Source: an uncultured Leptospirales bacterium (GTDB lineage Bacteria > Spirochaetota > UBA4802 > UBA5550). Taken from it: a stretch of DNA of 64,000 nucleotides. Of this stretch, positions 9,294-45,664 are shown piece by piece; positions within the stretch are counted from its first letter, which is position 1, and the number at the start of each line of letters is the position of its first letter. The DNA lies in assembly GCA_964529415.1 (NCBI GenBank), contig CAZGWD010000013.1, forward strand, positions 29,466 to 93,465. The letters are read 5' to 3'. Both the position numbers and the translations under genes were made by a program. Under the pieces are notes generated by a model. That model was not told the origin of the DNA. It saw only the letters and a program-made list of their open reading frames with translations, and did no database searches.

Positions 9294-10448
9294 TTATAAT
9301 TTTTTTATACAGATTATTGTGATGTCATCCTCCTGTATTGAGTAGTCGGTAAATTCATAATATGAGCTTAGAACATCAATTATAACAGAATTTGAACTGG
9401 TTTTGTCAGAGTTAAGCATGGCATTTATTAATCGTTCCTCTCCAAACATTTCAGTTTTATCACCTGACCAGGCTTCAGTTATACCATCAGAATACATCAG
9501 TAATATGTCGCCGCTTTCCATCGTGAATTTCGTATCAAGATATTCTGCATCTTTTAATACTCCGAGCATTGTACCTTTTGTTTTTACCCATGAAAATTTC
9601 CCTTGATCGGCGTGGTACAGCAAAGAGGGCGGATGACCCGCAGAGCTGTATGTTATTTCTCCGTTTCCCGCATTAATATCACAAGTTGCTGCAGTTGCGA
9701 GATAATAACTGTTTGATAGATTATTTGTCATGTCATTATTGACTCTTTGGATTATTTCAGATGGCCGCAGCAGTTCTTTCTGGAAAATCCGGAAAAGGCT
9801 TCTTATTTCATTACCTATATATGAAGTGGCAATACCATGGCCTGCGACATCACACACTATGAGGCGGGTGTTATTTTCCGAATATCTTATCCCGTCGAGG
9901 AAATCTCCGGATAGGTCTTCTGCAGGCAGCATTGAAAATGTTATATCAAAATTTTCAGTGCTTTTAAAATCAGGCAGAGATGACGCCTGTATTTCGCGGA
10001 CTTTGAAGATTTCTTTTTTATATCGATCCATCTCATGTCTTTCGTATTGTTTTAGTCTGTTGTATTCAACCGCTTTAAGAAGAGTTTTCTTAAACATCTG
10101 AGAGTCAATAGGTTTTATTATATAGTCAAAAACACCCAGCCTCAATGTATTTATTATTGCATTTGAGGTATCAACAACAGTCTGGACAAGTATCACAGGA
10201 TCTGCTGCAATTTCTTTTATGGCTGATATTAATTCATATCCGTCCATGTCCGGAAGAATCATATCTATTATAAAAATTGAATATTTATTTTTACGGATAA
10301 GCTCGATTGCGGGTTTTCCATCAGCTGCAGTATCTATCGGCAGACCAATTTCAATGCAGAGGTGTTCAATAAATTTTCTTGCTGTTGCTGAATCCTCTAT
10401 AATTAAAACAGGGTCAATTGTTTTTATATATCTATTAAGTTTATCCAT
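9294..10448 (-). CDS. response-regulator receiver domain fused to PP2C/SpoIIE-type phosphatase (RsbU-like)
   Basis: N-terminal CheY-like receiver (VLIIEDSATARKF...IIDMILPDMDGYEL) and a C-terminal PP2C region with CDVAGHGIATSY and MYSDGITEA motifs. Confidence 0.75.
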   Translation of the reverse strand: MDKLNRYIKTIDPVLIIEDSATARKFIEHLCIEIGLPIDTAADGKPAIELIRKNKYSIFIIDMILPDMDGYELISAIKEIAADPVILVQTVVDTSNAIINTLRLGVFDYIIKPIDSQMFKKTLLKAVEYNRLKQYERHEMDRYKKEIFKVREIQASSLPDFKSTENFDITFSMLPAEDLSGDFLDGIRYSENNTRLIVCDVAGHGIATSYIGNEIRSLFRIFQKELLRPSEIIQRVNNDMTNNLSNSYYLATAATCDINAGNGEITYSSAGHPPSLLYHADQGKFSWVKTKGTMLGVLKDAEYLDTKFTMESGDILLMYSDGITEAWSGDKTEMFGEERLINAMLNSDKTSSNSVIIDVLSSYYEFTDYSIQEDDITIICIKKL

Positions 10449-12266: not shown

Positions 12267-12320
12267 ATATTATTATCTTGTTAGCACTCGCTTTAATGAG
12301 TGCTAACAAGATAATAATAT
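12267..12320. promoter_or_regulatory. CIRCE-type HrcA operator upstream of groES
   Basis: A perfect 23-bp inverted repeat atattattatcttgTTAGCACTC / GAGTGCTAAcaagataataatat separated by an 8-nt spacer (gctttaat). It contains the canonical CIRCE half-sites, which usually flank an N9 spacer, and lies about 90 nt upstream of the groES start. Confidence 0.8.
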
Positions 12321-14394: not shown

Positions 14395-14427
14395 GATTAA
14401 AAATTTAAAAAAAGAATTATTTCAAAA

Positions 14428-14458
14428 GAGGCGCCTGAAAGGGTGCCTCTTTTTTTTG
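14428..14458 (+). terminator. rho-independent terminator after groEL
   Basis: gaggcgcc-tgaaa-gggtgcctc stem-loop followed by a T9 run. Confidence 0.75.
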
Positions 14459-14516
14459 TTCAGAAAATAGCGTCATTTTATATTTCAGCAAGTTCAGATA
14501 AAAACCGATTAGATAT

Positions 14517-15422
14517 ATGGGAAATCATTTTTTTATAGAGGGATTATTGTCTGAAGAAATTCAAATCCAAAACTCACTGCGCGATCAATTCGGTTTTGAG
14601 GAAATAATCCGGAATCAGGAGAATATTTATAAGCATGGTTCTTCTCTTGATTTAACTAATATTTCATTCATTGAACCATATTCAATGCTCTCCCTTCTGC
14701 TGATTGGACGGAATTTTCTAAGGCAAAAGGGTGAAAGGCTTAAGCTTGTAAATATTCCGTTAAATATACTTCAATATCTTGATAGAATGGATTTTAATAA
14801 AACCGGAATTTTTGAAATCAATGAAAAAATTCCGGATCAGATGCTTTTGAAAAGAAGTTCTCAAAGCAAAAGCATAATTGAAATAAAAGAAATTCCAAAT
14901 AAAGAAAGAGAAAGCGTTAAAGTGATATCAGAAGTAATAAAACTTTTCAGGAAACGGGCTTCATATATATTACGATTCTGGTTTGATGCAAATATAATAG
15001 ATTATTTTGTTACTGTGATCTCGGAATTATGCCAGAATATTTTTGAGCACAGTCTTGATTCAGGTTATATAACTCTTCAGAGTTATTCTAACGGCAGAAC
15101 GAATACAGTTCGCCTTGTTATTTCTGATTCAGGTATCGGTATAATTAAAAGTTTTGAAAAAACTGATGTTGAGTATTCAAGTTCAGCGGATCTGATCAAA
15201 AAGTCAATGACTACTCCCATATCGAGCAAGAGAAAAAACGGTTATGGTCTGTGTCAGGTTTATTCAATCATGGAAAAAATAAACGGTGATATATTTATAA
15301 GATCTGAAAATGCATCTGTAGCAATTTTATTCAGCAGAAATAAAAATACTCCACATGTGTTTGTAAAAGATGATCTGGATTATTTCAATGGAACGCAGAT
15401 TTCTCTTTCTCTAACAGCTTAA
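14517..15422 (+). CDS. STAS-like domain fused to GHKL/HATPase serine-kinase-like domain (RsbW/SpoIIAB-like)
   Basis: The N-terminal ~100 aa look like an anti-sigma antagonist (SLDLTNISFIEPYSMLSLLLIGRNFLRQKGERLKLVNIP). The C-terminal part has an N-box ELCQNIFEHSLDSG, a G-box ISDSGIGI and GYGLCQV. Confidence 0.5.
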   Translation: MGNHFFIEGLLSEEIQIQNSLRDQFGFEEIIRNQENIYKHGSSLDLTNISFIEPYSMLSLLLIGRNFLRQKGERLKLVNIPLNILQYLDRMDFNKTGIFEINEKIPDQMLLKRSSQSKSIIEIKEIPNKERESVKVISEVIKLFRKRASYILRFWFDANIIDYFVTVISELCQNIFEHSLDSGYITLQSYSNGRTNTVRLVISDSGIGIIKSFEKTDVEYSSSADLIKKSMTTPISSKRKNGYGLCQVYSIMEKINGDIFIRSENASVAILFSRNKNTPHVFVKDDLDYFNGTQISLSLTA

Positions 15423-15432
15423 AGGTAAATGG

Positions 15433-15981
15433 ATGATAATAACAATATTAAAAAAAGTAAAAGACTTAAAAATTTCTGCACCTGATCTTATTACAAGACC
15501 TTCAGGTAAAAAAGTTTTTGAAAGCGTAAAATCATCACTGGATATTATCTCGGAAAATGAGACTATTCTGATTGATTTTAAAGGTATTGGAGTTATTGAC
15601 TCTTCATTTATAGACGAATTCATTGTAAAGCTAATATTGGAATCAAAAAAAGAAGAAAAGCCGTTTTTTATTAAATTGAAAAATATATCCGATATTGCTG
15701 AAATTAATATTGACTCGGTATTTAAATCCTATTCTAATTACAACAAAGAGAGAATGGTTGTTATTACAGACGATATCAGAAAAAATAACAGTTTTTTTAT
15801 CGGTACTCTGGAAGAATTTGAAAAAAGTTTGCTGGCATTCTTAAGAGTAAATAAAAATGCCGGAGTTGATGAGCTCGCATCTAATCTCGAAAAATCAATA
15901 GATGAAACAGCATCAATTCTTGACAGGCTTTATGCAGAACGGTTAATAAAAAAAATTAAAGGATATTATTTCTTCATATAA
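15433..15981 (+). CDS. STAS-like (DUF4325-like) protein with C-terminal winged-helix-like segment
   Basis: ILIDFKGIGVIDSSFIDEFIVKL resembles STAS/DUF4325. The C-terminus (VDELASNLEKSIDETASILDRLYAERLIKK) looks like an HTH. The gene starts 11 nt after the previous one. Confidence 0.4.
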   Translation: MIITILKKVKDLKISAPDLITRPSGKKVFESVKSSLDIISENETILIDFKGIGVIDSSFIDEFIVKLILESKKEEKPFFIKLKNISDIAEINIDSVFKSYSNYNKERMVVITDDIRKNNSFFIGTLEEFEKSLLAFLRVNKNAGVDELASNLEKSIDETASILDRLYAERLIKKIKGYYFFI

Positions 15982-15989
15982 ATAATTTT

Positions 15990-16451
15990 ATGAAACCTTT
16001 AGCCGCCAAACAAAAAACCGATGACAGTCTTTTTGGTCTTTTAGCCGCCTATAAAACATATGTAACATACTTAAGAGTGCTTGTTTCTAAAGAGGAAAAA
16101 AAAATAGTGGTCCAGATTACATCCAATCCCGGAAACTGGTTGAAGAATACGGATGACAGTTATAAAAATTTCAGAGCTATGAGAAGACTTGAAATCGGTG
16201 CATCAAAACTTTCTATAAAATATCTGCTTCCTGAGCATATATTGAAAATTATCGGTCCGACTTTAGGAATTGATATTCCTTTAAATTCAATTGCAATATT
16301 TAATAATATTGAACAGAATGGAATTCTATCCCTTGAGGCGCATATTAAATATGAAAGTAAGATACTGCATGCTTTAAACAGACTGCTAAAATCAAGCCCC
16401 CAGAAAAAATATGAAATTCTGGAGAAATGTATGGCTGAATCACAGGTATAA
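15990..16451 (+). CDS. hypothetical protein
   Basis: 153-aa ORF tightly packed in the same operon (8-nt gap). No recognisable motif. Confidence 0.4.
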   Translation: MKPLAAKQKTDDSLFGLLAAYKTYVTYLRVLVSKEEKKIVVQITSNPGNWLKNTDDSYKNFRAMRRLEIGASKLSIKYLLPEHILKIIGPTLGIDIPLNSIAIFNNIEQNGILSLEAHIKYESKILHALNRLLKSSPQKKYEILEKCMAESQV

Positions 16452-16456
16452 ATGAA

Positions 16457-17473
16457 ATGGAAGAACAGATTAAAAGTATAGATATTGCCCTGAAATATAC
16501 AAACGGGGATATAACTAAAGCAAAAGAAATGGCTGCAGGTCATATCAACGATATCGTTGTTGTTAAAGGAAAATTTCTTGATATAGCATCGTCCCAGTCG
16601 GGACTTGTTCTTATTTTTTTTAATGTTGATTTTGAATACATTGCCAGCATAGAATCAATGATTGCAAATAACTCTGGAATTTTTGACAGGGCAAGAATTT
16701 TTGATGACTGGAAAGCTTTATATCTTGATCTGAAAACATTTCAGAATGGGCCTGAGTCAATTGAGCCCTCCGCATTTAATAATTCAATACTTCCTTCTGT
16801 AGCTCAGAATGATCTGTTTAAAAATGTTGAAGACGGTGATCTTGAGAGTATAAAGAAAAAATTGAATGCAGCAATATCTGCTTTTTATTCGGCTAAATCT
16901 GTACAGTTGCAGATTGAACTAAATAAAACAAATTCCATAGCACTTGATGTTGCAGGTCTGATTATTGACATACCGGGAAAAAAAGAAAAAGAGGATAATG
17001 AAAAAGAAAATCAGGCTGAAGAGACAGAATCCGAGAAAAGAATGGCTAAAATTGAACAGGATGCAATGTATGTTGTTAAAGGCAATTCTATTGTTTCTCC
17101 TGTTAGAGGTAAATTTATCAAAGATCTTCTGATTGGAGATAATATTAAAGTTGTATTACCGGATAAAGATATGGTAACACAGAAGATTCTTGATGCTGTT
17201 AATGCATACGATCAGGATAAAAAACCTTTGCCTGTTAAAGGAAGAGTGAAAGAGATAATTCCTCTTGAGAAAAACGGTTTTGTTATCTATACTCTTGTTG
17301 CAAAAGGAATACTTGCAAAACTCTTTGAAGAAGAAAACTTTAAGCTTATGATGTTCAATGAGCAAATGACAGACCAGAATCTTGAAAAAAGCGATCAGAA
17401 AATAATTTTTTTAGTATCCCTGCTTATTGGACTGATTTTACTTGCGGGAATAGTTTTAATCAAACTTCTGTAA
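16457..17473 (+). CDS. hypothetical protein with C-terminal TM anchor
   Basis: 338-aa ORF with an acidic low-complexity middle and a C-terminal hydrophobic helix (IIFLVSLLIGLILLAGIVLI). Confidence 0.45.
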   Translation: MEEQIKSIDIALKYTNGDITKAKEMAAGHINDIVVVKGKFLDIASSQSGLVLIFFNVDFEYIASIESMIANNSGIFDRARIFDDWKALYLDLKTFQNGPESIEPSAFNNSILPSVAQNDLFKNVEDGDLESIKKKLNAAISAFYSAKSVQLQIELNKTNSIALDVAGLIIDIPGKKEKEDNEKENQAEETESEKRMAKIEQDAMYVVKGNSIVSPVRGKFIKDLLIGDNIKVVLPDKDMVTQKILDAVNAYDQDKKPLPVKGRVKEIIPLEKNGFVIYTLVAKGILAKLFEEENFKLMMFNEQMTDQNLEKSDQKIIFLVSLLIGLILLAGIVLIKLL

Positions 17474-18369
17474 TGCATTACTGCAGATATTATATTTTAT
17501 TATTTATTGCTTTTATTCCGGTATTATTGCTTGCTCAAATGCCGGATTGGAGATTTTTTAAAGATAGAGAGGGCAATAAATATTTTTTTGATTCCGCCGG
17601 GAAAATTCATATTACATCACTTCCTGCATCAAATCGTAAAATTGTTTCAGCAGATGGTATTGATTATTATATAAATCTTGCAGAAGAAATTCTAAGCAGG
17701 AAAAAAATTGTAGAATCACTTCTTCTTTTCAAATCAATACTGGCCCTTCCGGACAACAATAACAGAATATACTCAGCAAGAGTCAGAGCCGCAAAAAATA
17801 TTGATAATTTGAGAAAAAAGAACGGTGACAGGTTCGAAAAATACAATATTGAAGCTTCTCTGCTTTTATATAAAACCGGAGATAGATCAATTATTCTAAA
17901 TGACTCTATGTTTTATTCTATGTCAAGCAAAGGTAAAATAAAATTAATCCGTTTTAAAATCAGGAATGAAAAGGATGAAATCTATCACGGAGCTTCTGTG
18001 GGAGTAAATTTCCAGGAAAAAGAAATCGCTGACAATAAATATGAATCTATAGTCGCTCTTGACGCGGTTAAAAAAAAGCATTCTATTTCATCTTTGGAAG
18101 AAATGATCGAAAACTGGAAAATGATTTTAGGAAAAGATACGCTTGTGCGTAATGAATTATTCAGGGATAAAGATACAGTTATTTATGAATTCAATTCTGG
18201 AATAAGTGATGAAAATTCGCAGATTTATAAAGGATTTGAAGTTCAGAAGTTTAACGGGAATTTTATATATTATTTAAGAATAGTTTCTTCAGGCATGAAA
18301 TTTGAAAAGAATAAAGATTCAATGAGGGATATGGCTCTCAGCTTTAAAACAGTTGCATTTGCAGAGTAA
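17473..18369 (+). CDS. hypothetical secreted protein (signal peptide)
   Basis: TAATG stop/start overlap with the upstream gene. The N-terminal signal peptide is YILLFIAFIPVLLLAQ. Confidence 0.45.
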   Translation: MHYCRYYILLFIAFIPVLLLAQMPDWRFFKDREGNKYFFDSAGKIHITSLPASNRKIVSADGIDYYINLAEEILSRKKIVESLLLFKSILALPDNNNRIYSARVRAAKNIDNLRKKNGDRFEKYNIEASLLLYKTGDRSIILNDSMFYSMSSKGKIKLIRFKIRNEKDEIYHGASVGVNFQEKEIADNKYESIVALDAVKKKHSISSLEEMIENWKMILGKDTLVRNELFRDKDTVIYEFNSGISDENSQIYKGFEVQKFNGNFIYYLRIVSSGMKFEKNKDSMRDMALSFKTVAFAE

Positions 18370-44221: not shown

Positions 44222-45664
44222 ATGACTATAAATGAAGAAAAAATTACAAGTCAGATAATGAAAAATTCGATCAGGTTTTCAGGTGAACTTGAAACGCTTT
44301 TTCATGAGGATTATTTTCTTAAATCTCTCGGCTCTGTAAGAAAGGCTCTTCTGCTTGCTTTTATTCTCTACGCATCTTTTGGTTTTCTCGATCTGATGAT
44401 TACGCCGCTTAGCAGCAGTCACACCTGGATTATCCGTTATGCAATTGTATGTCCTGTAATACTTGCTGCATATATAATGACTTATTTTGAAATATATGCC
44501 AGAATATCCCAGTATGTAATAAGCGCAGTTGCTCTAACTGCAGGATTCGGTATTCTCGGAATGATTTTTTTCGCTGTAGAAAAAGAAGGCAAACTGTATT
44601 ACTACGCAGGCCTGATCCTCGTAATAATGTGGAGCTATACGCTTGTCCGCATGAGATTCAGATATTCCACAATCACAAGCTGGACCATAGTTGCAGGTTA
44701 CGAATTGATGACTGTAGTTCTGCAGAATCTTGTTTCAACGCCGGATCTATACCCGAGTTTTATTAACAATAATTTCTTTTTTATTTCATCAAATATTATT
44801 GGAATGATGGCAGGTTATTACATTGAACTTTTCAGCAGAAAGGATTTTCTACAGCGCCTCCTGATTGCTGAAAAGCAGATAAAACTGACAGATGAAAGAA
44901 ACGAACTGAGTTCAAGAATGAATATGATGAACAAAGAACTTAATATGACCAGGATAATTCAGGAGCAGCTTATTCCGCTTGAACATCCGGGGGATTTTAT
45001 ATTTTCACTGTATAAGCCGATGGAGGCAGTTGGAGGAGATTTTTTCGATTTTATAAAATTCAGGGAACCTGACATAATTGGAATTTTCCTGAGCGATGTT
45101 TCAGGACATGGCGTACCTTCTGCTCTCATTACATCTATGGTGAAGGTTACTCTTCTTGAATCCAACAGATACAAGGATGATCCTGCAAAAATTCTGGCGC
45201 ATCTTAATGATCTTCTGGTGGGAATAAGCGGAGGGCATTTTATAACAGCATTTTACGGAGTTTTCGATATGAAGGAAAAAACTCTGGTTTATTCAAATGC
45301 AGGCCATTATCCGCCAATGCTGATTAGCGGAGGTGAGATATTGAATCTTGATAAGGCGTCAACTCTTCCCCTGGCAGTTTTATCCAATGATGAATTAACA
45401 AGCGGCAGTCAGATGTTTGAAAATGCCAGAGTAAAACTTCCGGATCAAGGGAAACTCTTTCTGTTTACAGACGGGCTTGTTGAGGCGAAAAATATTTTTA
45501 ATCCCCAGAATGATTTTTCGAGCATTCTTGACGGGATTTTACTTAAAAATATAGATCTTCCGGCAAAAGAGTTCATCAACGAGCTGTATAAAGAGCTAAT
45601 TTTATATAGAGGCTCTGAAAATTTTAATGATGATATCTGCATGATTGCTCTTGATCTGAACTGA
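44222..45664 (+). CDS. SiaA-like membrane PP2C (SpoIIE-type) phosphatase with the shared 6-TM sensor domain
   Basis: The N-terminal TM domain is paralogous to 42151 (IIRYAIVCP, YYAGLILVIMWSYTLVRMRF, FINNNFFFISSNIIGM). The C-terminal PP2C has LSDVSGHGVPSALIT and LFTDGLVEA. Confidence 0.7.
   Translation: MTINEEKITSQIMKNSIRFSGELETLFHEDYFLKSLGSVRKALLLAFILYASFGFLDLMITPLSSSHTWIIRYAIVCPVILAAYIMTYFEIYARISQYVISAVALTAGFGILGMIFFAVEKEGKLYYYAGLILVIMWSYTLVRMRFRYSTITSWTIVAGYELMTVVLQNLVSTPDLYPSFINNNFFFISSNIIGMMAGYYIELFSRKDFLQRLLIAEKQIKLTDERNELSSRMNMMNKELNMTRIIQEQLIPLEHPGDFIFSLYKPMEAVGGDFFDFIKFREPDIIGIFLSDVSGHGVPSALITSMVKVTLLESNRYKDDPAKILAHLNDLLVGISGGHFITAFYGVFDMKEKTLVYSNAGHYPPMLISGGEILNLDKASTLPLAVLSNDELTSGSQMFENARVKLPDQGKLFLFTDGLVEAKNIFNPQNDFSSILDGILLKNIDLPAKEFINELYKELILYRGSENFNDDICMIALDLN

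Follow-up and report, generated by a model that had tools for sequence, protein, structure and literature searches.

A five-gene operon of uncultured Spirochaetota headed by distant homologues of CapK and CapS

The window analyzed here, a 64,000-nucleotide stretch of a contig from an uncultured Leptospirales bacterium, contains at positions 14517-18369 five tightly packed open reading frames, g1 to g5, the first of which combines a STAS domain and an RsbW-like kinase in a single chain. Which protein would such a kinase phosphorylate, and what would the phosphorylation control? The preliminary description of this DNA proposed that substrate and kinase are both contained in g1, that the switch operates independently of a sigma factor with a DNA-binding output, and that the architecture was undescribed. 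The ORF list and the junction sequences agree with that description in every reading frame and junction, and the features of the locus are as follows:

14424..14453, + strand: groEL hairpin resembling an intrinsic terminator, followed by a T-run (terminator scan and sequence)
14484..14512, + strand: promoter-like block TTCAG-N16-CCGATTAG, conserved upstream of g1 (sequence logo)
14517..15422, + strand: g1, STAS domain (approximately residues 12-115) and SpoIIAB/RsbW/CapK-like GHKL serine kinase (approximately residues 130-301)
15433..15981, + strand: g2, DUF4325-type STAS domain and C-terminal winged helix; CapS homologue
15990..16451, + strand: g3, 153-aa soluble (cytoplasmic), lineage-restricted orphan
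16457..17473, + strand: g4, tail-anchored protein; TM helix at the C-terminus (residues 308-337)
17473..18369, + strand: g5, secreted or periplasmic protein with a signal peptide, then the WW-like motif QMPDWxFFxDxxGNxYY

Organization and inheritance of the operon

The terminator-like hairpin of groEL is the upstream boundary of the operon, within which the gaps between g1 and g2, g2 and g3, and g3 and g4 are 10, 8, and 5 nt, and the stop codon of g4 overlaps the start codon of g5 at TAATG. An AGAGG sequence precedes TTG 14547 inside the annotated g1, and this codon, rather than ATG 14517, is probably the real start; g1 is 301 aa long when counted from ATG 14517, or 291 aa. The promoter-like block accompanies g1 even where the upstream gene differs, and a search of both strands of related loci, 1.02 Mb in total, with a strict form of the motif gave 33 matches, of which 22 fall in the 300 nt preceding g1. 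The -10 half of the block is similar to the sigma-28/FliA element GCCGATAA. With only 8 nt between g2 and g3, a promoter dedicated to the cargo could not be accommodated.

The synteny of the locus, for which a check had been called for, is strongly conserved: g1 to g4 are colinear in 68 of the 69 related Spirochaetota loci with enough contig, g5 follows next in 58 of 64, and the spacing between g1 and g2 has a median of 10 nt (n = 84 loci). The operon retains approximately 57% identity across the lineage, which exceeds that of the neighboring genes, and all five genes are under purifying selection, with dN/dS values of 0.03-0.14 against a 96% relative. The surrounding genes include groESL upstream in 28/67 loci and, downstream, SPOR genes in 49/57 and GNAT genes in 44/57; these are stable housekeeping surroundings, and the operon is chromosomal and passed on by vertical descent.

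Relationship to CapK-CapS and VapKSC

The CapK-CapS and VapKSC systems were described by Chambers, Rani, Min, Villa, and Corbett (EMBO J 2026; PMC13373217), so that the architecture regarded as undescribed has in fact been published. CapK is a signal-activated kinase that phosphorylates the STAS-wHTH repressor CapS; the signal is single-stranded DNA, the fused STAS domain of CapK forms part of the ssDNA-sensing groove, residue N218 is essential, and the N-terminal HTH is dispensable in published assays (PMC13373217). The demonstrated substrate site is Ser54 of CapS, a residue on a separate protein (PMC13373217). VapKSC comprises the kinase VapK, the STAS antitoxin VapS, and the PIN toxin VapC, and the phosphate on CapS or VapS disrupts a STAS-mediated interface (PMC13373217). 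CapK and CapS have so far been described solely beside anti-phage systems carried by mobile DNA, for the most part in Proteobacteria. Most characterized capKS pairs are located upstream of immune operons (PMC13373217), and their cargo is variable.

Domain searches confirmed that g1 unites a STAS domain and an RsbW-like kinase, and in a PDB profile search its best structural matches were the anti-sigma kinases SpoIIAB and RsbW. When the g1 family was compared by hhalign with members of the newly described systems, alignments were obtained with CapK of E. roggenkampii (probability 95.8, E 6.9e-9, 237 columns), with a 300-aa VapK-like protein of Deinococcus over nearly the full length (E 2.7e-6, 259 columns), and with an HTH-less CapK-like protein encoded on a Nostoc plasmid (E 2.9e-32). 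Asn174 (codon 15036-15038), which aligns with N218 of CapK, is invariant in 25/25 g1 sequences; the DSGIG and GYGL motifs are invariant too. The alignment with CapK begins at CapK residue 93, corresponding to g1 residue 48, and the remainder of the STAS domain in g1 would have its counterpart beyond approximately CapK residue 58. Unlike CapK, g1 shows no Pfam HTH match and opens directly with the STAS domain, a difference that it shares with the defense-linked Nostoc homologue and that makes it resemble the two-domain, HTH-less STAS-GHKL kinase of approximately 300 aa in VapKSC. The positions of the ssDNA-contacting lysines K237 and K239 of CapK are occupied in g1 by S/N/G or are variable, and both candidate equivalents of W68 (Y/F25 and F27; F51) are conserved aromatic positions, between which the alignment register is ambiguous. 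Since the CapK-type ssDNA-contact residues are thus either not conserved or not mappable with confidence, the activating signal of g1 need not be ssDNA.

The assignment of g2 as a DUF4325 domain followed by a winged helix was likewise upheld: DUF4325 was detected with an E value of 9e-8 (32.1 bits against a Pfam gathering cutoff of 23) and in 26/26 orthologues, and several orthologues gave weak Pfam matches to the winged-helix families MarR, TrmB, HTH_24, and TFIIE. Among solved structures, the g2 profile matched VapS best (9z7o, E 3.6e-4), followed by CapS (9z71/9z72, E 5.4e-4); by hhalign, g2 matched CapS with an E value of 1.9e-5 and the CapS-like protein of the Nostoc pair with an E value of 2.7e-12 over 166 columns. 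CapS itself gave no DUF4325 match in Pfam, and the "STAS-like domain" label of the Deinococcus VapS-like protein can be read as DUF4325 naming. The Nostoc pair therefore links the g1/g2 family to the CapK/CapS family, and g1 and g2 are distant homologues of CapK and CapS as judged from these profile comparisons.

The spirochaete locus and capKS share the order of a STAS-GHKL kinase gene followed directly by a gene for a STAS-winged-helix protein of approximately 180 aa, the catalytic Asn, an acceptor Ser in a D-x-S-F motif, and the position of the pair at the head of an operon presumably under its control. With VapKSC, the locus has in common the DUF4325-type STAS domain and tight gene coupling; it differs in that g2 carries a full C-terminal winged helix (approximately 60 aa) where VapS has only a short C-terminal inhibitory helix, and in that the third gene does not encode a PIN nuclease and is followed by genes for two further envelope proteins. 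When the possible outputs were weighed, the HTH-less kinase and the DUF4325-type STAS domain of g2, both VapKSC-like, were counted toward a protein-level output, as was the short g2-g3 gap.

A predicted phospho-switch acting in trans

Ser58 of g2 (codon 15604-15606) is present in 81/81 orthologues, aligns with Ser54 of CapS (TDSSF against IDSSF), and lies in the invariant motif D56-x-S58-F59-x-D61-E62; it is the predicted phospho-acceptor. Because g2 holds this CapS-type serine and CapK provides the precedent, the substrate of g1 would be g2 in trans and not, as originally proposed, the STAS domain of g1 in cis. The idea of a kinase/STAS switch independent of a sigma factor, by comparison, agrees with the experimentally characterized homologues CapK and CapS.

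From the folds, homology, motifs, and operon structure we infer a kinase activity, a phosphorylation site, a signal, and an output, and it is moderately likely that the operon encodes a CapK/CapS-family phospho-switch together with three proteins under its control. In this scheme, g1 would be a cytoplasmic STAS-GHKL serine kinase that is switched on by a signal at or near the interface between its STAS and kinase domains and that phosphorylates Ser58 of g2, located in a conserved acidic patch on helix 2 of the g2 STAS domain. The phosphate would break a STAS-mediated interface, either of a g2 dimer or of a complex between g2 and a partner, as in CapS and VapS, and would thereby change the activity or level of a co-transcribed, membrane-associated module composed of the soluble g3, the tail-anchored g4, and the periplasmic g5.

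The kinase/STAS-wHTH architecture is already known, and the spirochaete variant differs from it in its cargo, its fixation, and the winged helix of g2. The cargo is fixed and lineage-specific and matches no defense model, and the locus is chromosomal and vertically transmitted, in contrast to the mobile capKS. The kinase/STAS-substrate pair is fixed as a housekeeping operon in about a hundred species-level uncultured Spirochaetota genomes, where it is coupled to three lineage-specific, uncharacterized membrane-associated proteins instead of a phage-defense system, a situation that bears on the origin of immune regulators and on the breadth of output in this family.

Possible DNA binding or protein docking by g2

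The preliminary description assumed a DNA-binding output, which the winged helix of g2 makes doubtful. The DNA-contacting residues N145 and K151 of CapS are replaced by E158 and D164, G169-G170 are absent, and the wing is shortened, with its tip deleted. Helix 3 is acidic and variable across orthologues: the median net charge is -2 and the pI of the domain is 5.3, against +3 and 9.7 in CapS. The motif [QN][NS]AS.RLK[KR]L, common to the CapS proteins of Enterobacter, Vibrio, and Nostoc, is also absent from g2, and the conserved surface of its winged helix is helix 1, not helix 3. The loss of DNA-reading residues stands in clean contrast to the intact phospho-switch patch. Where the wing begins, some basic residues are retained (R170, K/R173, and K/R174), so DNA could still be bound by g2.

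In the most serious alternative, g2 would be a CapS-like dimeric repressor that binds the g1 promoter and autoregulates the five-gene transcript, and its phosphorylation at Ser58 by g1 would induce g3-g5. The common architecture, the length of 182 aa in each protein, and the homology over both domains argue for such a repressor, as do the weak winged-helix family matches, the strongly conserved regulatory block just upstream of g1, and the basic residues kept at the wing base; the exposed, species-variable helix 3 would also fit the coevolution of an autoregulator with the operator it binds. These points are opposed by the missing DNA-contact residues, the acidic helix 3, and the deleted wing tip, as well as by two features of the DNA: inspection by eye of the sequences upstream of g1 revealed no consistently placed palindrome, and the junction sequences contain no intergenic promoter region between g1 and g2 or between g2 and g3 like that of capKS loci; g2 lacks the separate promoter that capS possesses. 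A repressor of this type is possible but clearly short of probable.

The absence of the CapS DNA-reading residues together with the conserved helix 1 favors control at the protein level, and such control, following the logic of VapS with g3 or g4 as the protein bound, appears slightly more likely than operator binding on these sequence comparisons. A partner protein released by phosphorylation would suit a winged helix that does not look like a DNA reader. It is possible, though less likely than not, that a CapK/CapS-type switch, known elsewhere only as a controller of mobile immune operons that responds to DNA damage, has turned in this lineage into a core, vertically inherited regulator, in which g2 would have ceased to read DNA, its winged helix would dock a protein, and phosphorylation of Ser58 would release or engage a lineage-specific envelope complex of g3, g4, and g5. 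Genome L059, which retains g1, g2, and g5 but is missing g3 and g4, argues against an obligatory complex of g2 with g3 or g4. If the docking reading is true, the cell envelope or division would come under the influence of a cytoplasmic signal, for which ssDNA and DNA damage are candidates, and the family would gain a third mode of output besides the transcriptional one of CapS and the toxin release of VapS.

Less likely alternatives: sigma factor control and phosphorylation in cis

A classical partner switch, in which g1 would be the anti-sigma factor of a group-3 (sigma-28-like) sigma factor encoded outside the locus, with g2 as the antagonist and sigma-28-like autoregulation of the operon, is quite unlikely. 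It would account for the structural matches of g1 to SpoIIAB and RsbW, for the CCGATnAT element in the upstream block, whose likeness to sigma-28 promoters was judged against their -10 consensus, and for the PP2C/SpoIIE phosphatases encoded in the genome, two of them within the window; SpoIIAA and RsbV likewise carry their acceptor serine on helix 2 of the STAS domain, the location of the predicted acceptor in g2. However, the promoter assignment is by resemblance only, and, consistent with the initial report, no sigma factor was evident within approximately 5 kb of the operon in the translations and in Pfam scans of some neighbors. Among approximately 80 genomes none is linked to the operon, the sole Sigma70 gene seen (in L003/L004) being oppositely oriented and approximately 8 kb upstream, and no dedicated phosphatase is linked to g1-g5 either, in contrast to the SpoIIAB-SpoIIAA and RsbW-RsbV systems. 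In addition, g1 is far closer to CapK-type kinases, as in the Nostoc comparison, and these target a STAS-wHTH protein; the STAS domain fused to g1 and the winged helix added to g2 are foreign to the single-domain RsbW/RsbV pairs.

Rv1364c of M. tuberculosis, in which RsbU-like, RsbW-like, and STAS domains are fused and the STAS domain is reported to be phosphorylated in cis, shows that an RsbW-like kinase can share a polypeptide with a STAS domain, and its structure (3ke6) was matched by g1 in the PDB profile search. Its domain order is the reverse of that in g1, with the STAS domain at the C-terminus, and the protein additionally contains PAS and PP2C domains. By analogy, the STAS domain of g1 could be the substrate of its own kinase, and g2 would then compete with it or serve as a further target in parallel; the presence of both domains in one chain and Ser56 (located in the motif FIEPYSM, where STAS helix 2 begins), which is invariant in the spirochaete family and aligned with Ser101 of CapK, are in keeping with this idea. 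The canonical STAS acceptor position in g1 is, however, occupied by Pro54, Ser56 is replaced by Gly in the Nostoc homologue (PYG), and the fused STAS domain of CapK serves the ssDNA groove, making phosphorylation in cis very doubtful.

The cargo proteins

That g3-g5 constitute a new phage-defense or abortive-infection effector under a CapKS-type controller is highly improbable: most characterized capKS pairs do precede immune operons, the Nostoc pair precedes an MBL-fold protein and an E1/E2/JAB immune operon, and the membrane-anchored protein of the set could be an effector, but no significant PADLOC system match was found for any of the five proteins, the operon is inherited vertically among stable housekeeping neighbors (groESL, SPOR, GNAT), the cargo is constant across approximately 80 species, whereas that of capKS varies, and distant plasmid and phage relatives of g1 are few.

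Searches with g3 gave no match in Pfam, NCBIfam, PADLOC, or PDB, and no more than 35 cluster representatives of its family were recovered from 1.84 billion proteins; its dN/dS is 0.085. Its 26 orthologues contain no PIN or other Pfam domain, no invariant acidic triad, and no catalytic-looking invariant residues, which leaves no more than a formal resemblance to VapC.

The topologies first ascribed to the two remaining uncharacterized proteins are borne out by their orthologues, and a switch controlling them would offer a functional handle on orphan envelope proteins. In g4, an N-terminal helical bundle, which we guess to be UBA-like, is followed by an alpha/beta domain, an acidic disordered linker, an SH3-like barrel resembling EF-P domain I, and the TM helix, the C-terminal hydrophobic helix being found in 72/73 orthologues. 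The full length of g4 matched the Leptospira LIC10486 family (NF047678) with 57 bits and an E value of 1.7e-15, against an equivalog cutoff of 500 bits, which identifies g4, on this profile match, as a distant homologue and not a member of that family. A signal-like segment is found at the N-terminus of 59/66 g5 orthologues, and the g5 profile matched a NEDD4 WW domain in PDB (E 0.0046); weak Pfam WW matches occurred in 6 of 20 members.

Organization and conservation of the operon

The five genes, all on one strand of the window, are arranged as follows (lengths from the ORF listing):

14517–15422, + strand, g1, STAS-GHKL kinase, 301 aa
15433–15981, + strand, g2, DUF4325 STAS and winged-helix protein, 182 aa
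15990–16451, + strand, g3, soluble orphan protein, 153 aa
16457–17473, + strand, g4, tail-anchored orphan protein, 338 aa
17473–18369, + strand, g5, secreted orphan protein, 298 aa

The junctions are tight, with gaps of 10, 8, and 5 nt followed by the TAATG overlap between g4 and g5 that the preliminary description reports. On the upstream side lie groES-groEL and then a strong terminator-like hairpin (14424–14453), and a convergent GNAT gene is found at the downstream end. All five genes are real, since each shows a dN/dS of 0.03–0.14 against L006, a 96%-identical relative, and since hydropathy analysis detected one C-terminal transmembrane helix in 72 of 73 g4 orthologues and a signal-like N-terminal segment in 59 of 66 g5 orthologues. 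The domain calls of the preliminary description were also correct: for g2, for example, a Pfam match to DUF4325 (E 9e-8) recurs in 26 of 26 orthologues, and the C-terminal 60 residues of several g2 orthologues give weak matches to MarR, TrmB, HTH_24, or TFIIE.

The operon is well conserved. A total of 283 database relatives of the g1 protein were found, the best 120 of which are full-length with 54–96% identity and, where a source is named, are labelled Spirochaetota, Leptospirales, or “bacterium.” When each GTDB species was scanned through a single genome, 96 relatives emerged; every one of the 80 that were retrieved comes from an uncultured MAG, and all but one are labelled Spirochaetota or a subgroup thereof. 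In a tblastn search of the five proteins against the retrieved loci, g1–g4 were colinear in 68 of the 69 loci with enough contig, and g5 came next in 58 of 64, with median intergenic distances along g1–g5 of 10, 45, 3, and 6 nt. Downstream, a SPOR gene (49/57 loci) and a GNAT gene (44/57) recur, whereas groEL lies upstream in just 28 of 67 loci, genes for an MCP and a peptidase being among the other flanks. What is conserved is the block of five genes and not the gene upstream of it; this block as a whole is inherited vertically, in a housekeeping setting. One retrieved locus (L059:951–3220) contains g1-g2-g5 and is missing g3 and g4; it is either a naturally arisen deletion or an assembly error.

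A stretch of 400 nt in the 5′ part of g3 (window ~15950–16350) is 99–100% identical to L006, compared with ~90% elsewhere, and its dS is 0.08 against 0.37–0.57 elsewhere. Constraint at the nucleotide level, which this seemed to indicate, is contradicted by normal divergence in a third relative, L091 (dS 1.2); the near-identity is likely to reflect recent recombination or an assembly effect rather than function.

Relationship to CapK/CapS and VapKSC

A search of PDB sequences with the g2-family profile matched three 2026 entries: “Escherichia VapS” (9z7o; E 3.6e-4), a 185-aa “MarR family transcriptional regulator” aligned over both domains (9z72/9z73; E 5.4e-4), and a 184-aa wHTH regulator (9z71). 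These originate from a single study (Chambers et al., EMBO J 2026; PMC13373217), which describes CapK as a kinase of HTH-STAS-GHKL architecture that is switched on when single-stranded DNA binds between its STAS and kinase domains, and CapS as a dimeric STAS-wHTH repressor that CapK targets at Ser54. Phosphorylation of Ser54 dissociates the CapS dimer and derepresses the adjacent immune operon; in the related VapKSC system, VapK, which has no HTH domain, phosphorylates VapS, and the PIN toxin VapC is freed (PMC13373217).

For comparison, three loci were used: the plasmid-borne capKS of E. roggenkampii (L086), a locus resembling vapKSC on a plasmid of Deinococcus (L087), and a closer relative on a Nostoc linckia plasmid (L088), located by tblastn with g1.

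Profile alignments (hhalign) of the g1 and g2 families
g1 family, CapK: probability 95.8, E 6.9e-9, 237 columns across STAS and kinase
g1 family, Deinococcus VapK-like protein: E 2.7e-6, 259 columns
g1 family, Nostoc 282-aa protein (no HTH): E 2.9e-32
g2 family, CapS: E 1.9e-5
g2 family, Nostoc 197-aa protein: E 2.7e-12, 166 columns

At the residue level, CapS Ser54, the second serine of TDSSF, is aligned with Ser58 in the IDSSF of g2, which is invariant in 81 of 81 orthologues, as are D56, F59, D61, and E62, while Ser57 varies; likewise, the essential CapK N218 is aligned with the invariant N174 of g1. The operon core is a distant member of the system published in 2026 (PMC13373217), and the earlier view that it was undescribed no longer holds.

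The closest non-spirochaete relative of g1/g2 found is the unannotated capKS-like pair on N. linckia plasmid2 (L088:4938–9972), in which a kinase with no HTH domain is coupled to a STAS-wHTH protein; it is followed directly by an MBL-fold protein and an E2-E1-JAB fusion, a setting that is one of the immune-operon contexts named for capKS (PMC13373217). This pair forms a bridge between the spirochaete family and CapK/CapS. The vapKSC-like trio on Deinococcus gobiensis plasmid P5 (L087:2033–3879) carries generic annotation only (ATP-binding protein, STAS-like protein, and PIN-domain protein).

Several features separate the spirochaete operon from CapK/CapS. The g1 protein shares with the Nostoc protein and VapK the lack of an HTH domain; neither of the CapK lysines, K237 and K239, is conserved in g1, and the alignments gave no assignment for an equivalent of CapK W68. 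In capKS, capS and the cargo have separate promoters (PMC13373217), which the spacers of 10 nt (g1-g2) and 8 nt (g2-g3) rule out here. The helix 3 motif [QN][NS]AS.RLK[KR]L, common to the Enterobacter, Vibrio, and Nostoc CapS proteins, is missing from g2, where the CapS DNA-contact residues N145 and K151 are aligned with E158 and D164, and no positions in the protein are less conserved than the exposed ones of helix 3. The wing, including its GG tip, is shortened relative to CapS, and the winged-helix domain has a median net charge of −2 and a pI of 5.3, as opposed to +3 and 9.7 in CapS; its conserved surface is helix 1 (E130, D132, R138, N140). This winged helix does not look like a DNA reader. 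Finally, the cargo is variable in capKS and fixed in the spirochaete operon, and g3–g5 gave no significant PADLOC match. The operon is a distinct variant: its kinase has no HTH domain, the DNA-reading surface of its substrate is degenerate, its cargo is a fixed set of orphan envelope proteins, and within Spirochaetota it is inherited vertically.

Possible mode of action

On balance, g1/g2 probably constitute a CapK/CapS-family phospho-switch controlling the co-encoded g3–g5, the best-supported reading, to which we give modest preference. In this scheme, g1 would be a signal-activated serine kinase that phosphorylates Ser58 of g2 in trans, and the phosphate would disrupt a STAS-mediated interface, thereby exerting control over the g3–g5 module. 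A VapS-type output at the protein level is slightly favoured over operator binding because the g2 winged helix is unlike a DNA reader.

A strong rival is that g2 is a CapS-like autorepressor, which is possible, if tentative. A classical anti-sigma switch is unlikely, as none of the genomes has a sigma factor linked to the operon and g1 groups with CapK-type kinases. The preliminary description's proposal that the STAS domain of g1 is the cis substrate of its own kinase was not supported and is very unlikely: Pro54 occupies the canonical acceptor position of g1, and Ser56, otherwise invariant, is replaced by Gly in the homologue from Nostoc. A defence function of g3–g5 is highly improbable, the inheritance pattern speaking against it.

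Two PP2C/SpoIIE-type phosphatases, one of them fused to a receiver domain, are encoded in the window (9294–10448, − strand; 44222–45664, + strand). They could remove the phosphate from phosphorylated g2; neither gene is syntenic with the operon in relatives.

Cargo proteins

Among 1.84 billion proteins, g3 has 35 cluster representatives, which are ~150–160 aa or fragments except for two marginal matches in much longer proteins, and no relatives beyond the lineage were detected. Profile searches against the PDB and Pfam scans of 26 orthologues gave no family or structure match for g3; weak AsnC_trans_reg matches were rejected, and hhalign against E. coli Lrp gave nothing.

Over its full length, the g4 protein (16457–17473) is distantly homologous to the Leptospira LIC10486 family. 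Two hypothetical proteins, LIC10486 and LIC10483, are reported to be seroreactive in leptospirosis patients (PMC3798601). The listed matches of a word-indexed g4 search, most of them without a name, include no Leptospira-labelled protein, and no g4 of the relatives scores closer to LIC10486. LIC10483–LIC10487 may conceivably represent this operon in Leptospira. LIC10483 is abundant in the surface fraction, which is not what a kinase would be like.

A conserved (A/S/G)-Q-M-P-D-W closes the g5 signal peptide, and a WW-like motif (weak matches) follows. The predicted mature N-terminus, QMPDWxFFxDxxGNxYY (window 17473–17620), shows strong conservation and a weak likeness to a WW domain, a feature unusual for a bacterial periplasmic protein.

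Upstream region and start of g1

A conserved promoter-like motif, TTCAG-N16-CCGAT(n)AT, is located upstream of g1 in the window (14484–14512) and in the retrieved loci L005–L072, and it stays with g1 where the upstream gene differs. Searching both strands of 1.02 Mb from related loci with the strict motif gave 33 matches, 22 of which lie within 300 nt upstream of g1; the motif has no second occurrence in the 64-kb window. A transcription start would be expected downstream of CCGATTAG. In its −10 half, the motif is similar to the established sigma-28/FliA consensus GCCGATAA, a likeness that serves as a lead. Inspection of the upstream sequences revealed no palindrome at a consistent position across clades. 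The neighbouring groESL promoter is of another kind and has a CIRCE element: an inverted repeat of this type, TTAGCACTC-N9-GAGTGCTAA, lies upstream of groES (window ~12281–12307) and implies control of groESL by HrcA.

In the closest relatives (L089 and L090), the first (annotated) ATG of g1, at 14517, is not in frame, whereas AGAGG followed by TTG (window 14536–14549) is conserved in the window and these relatives. This suggests that the true start is probably the TTG at 14547, yielding a 291-aa protein; a leaderless g1 mRNA was dropped in favour of this start with AGAGG ahead of it.
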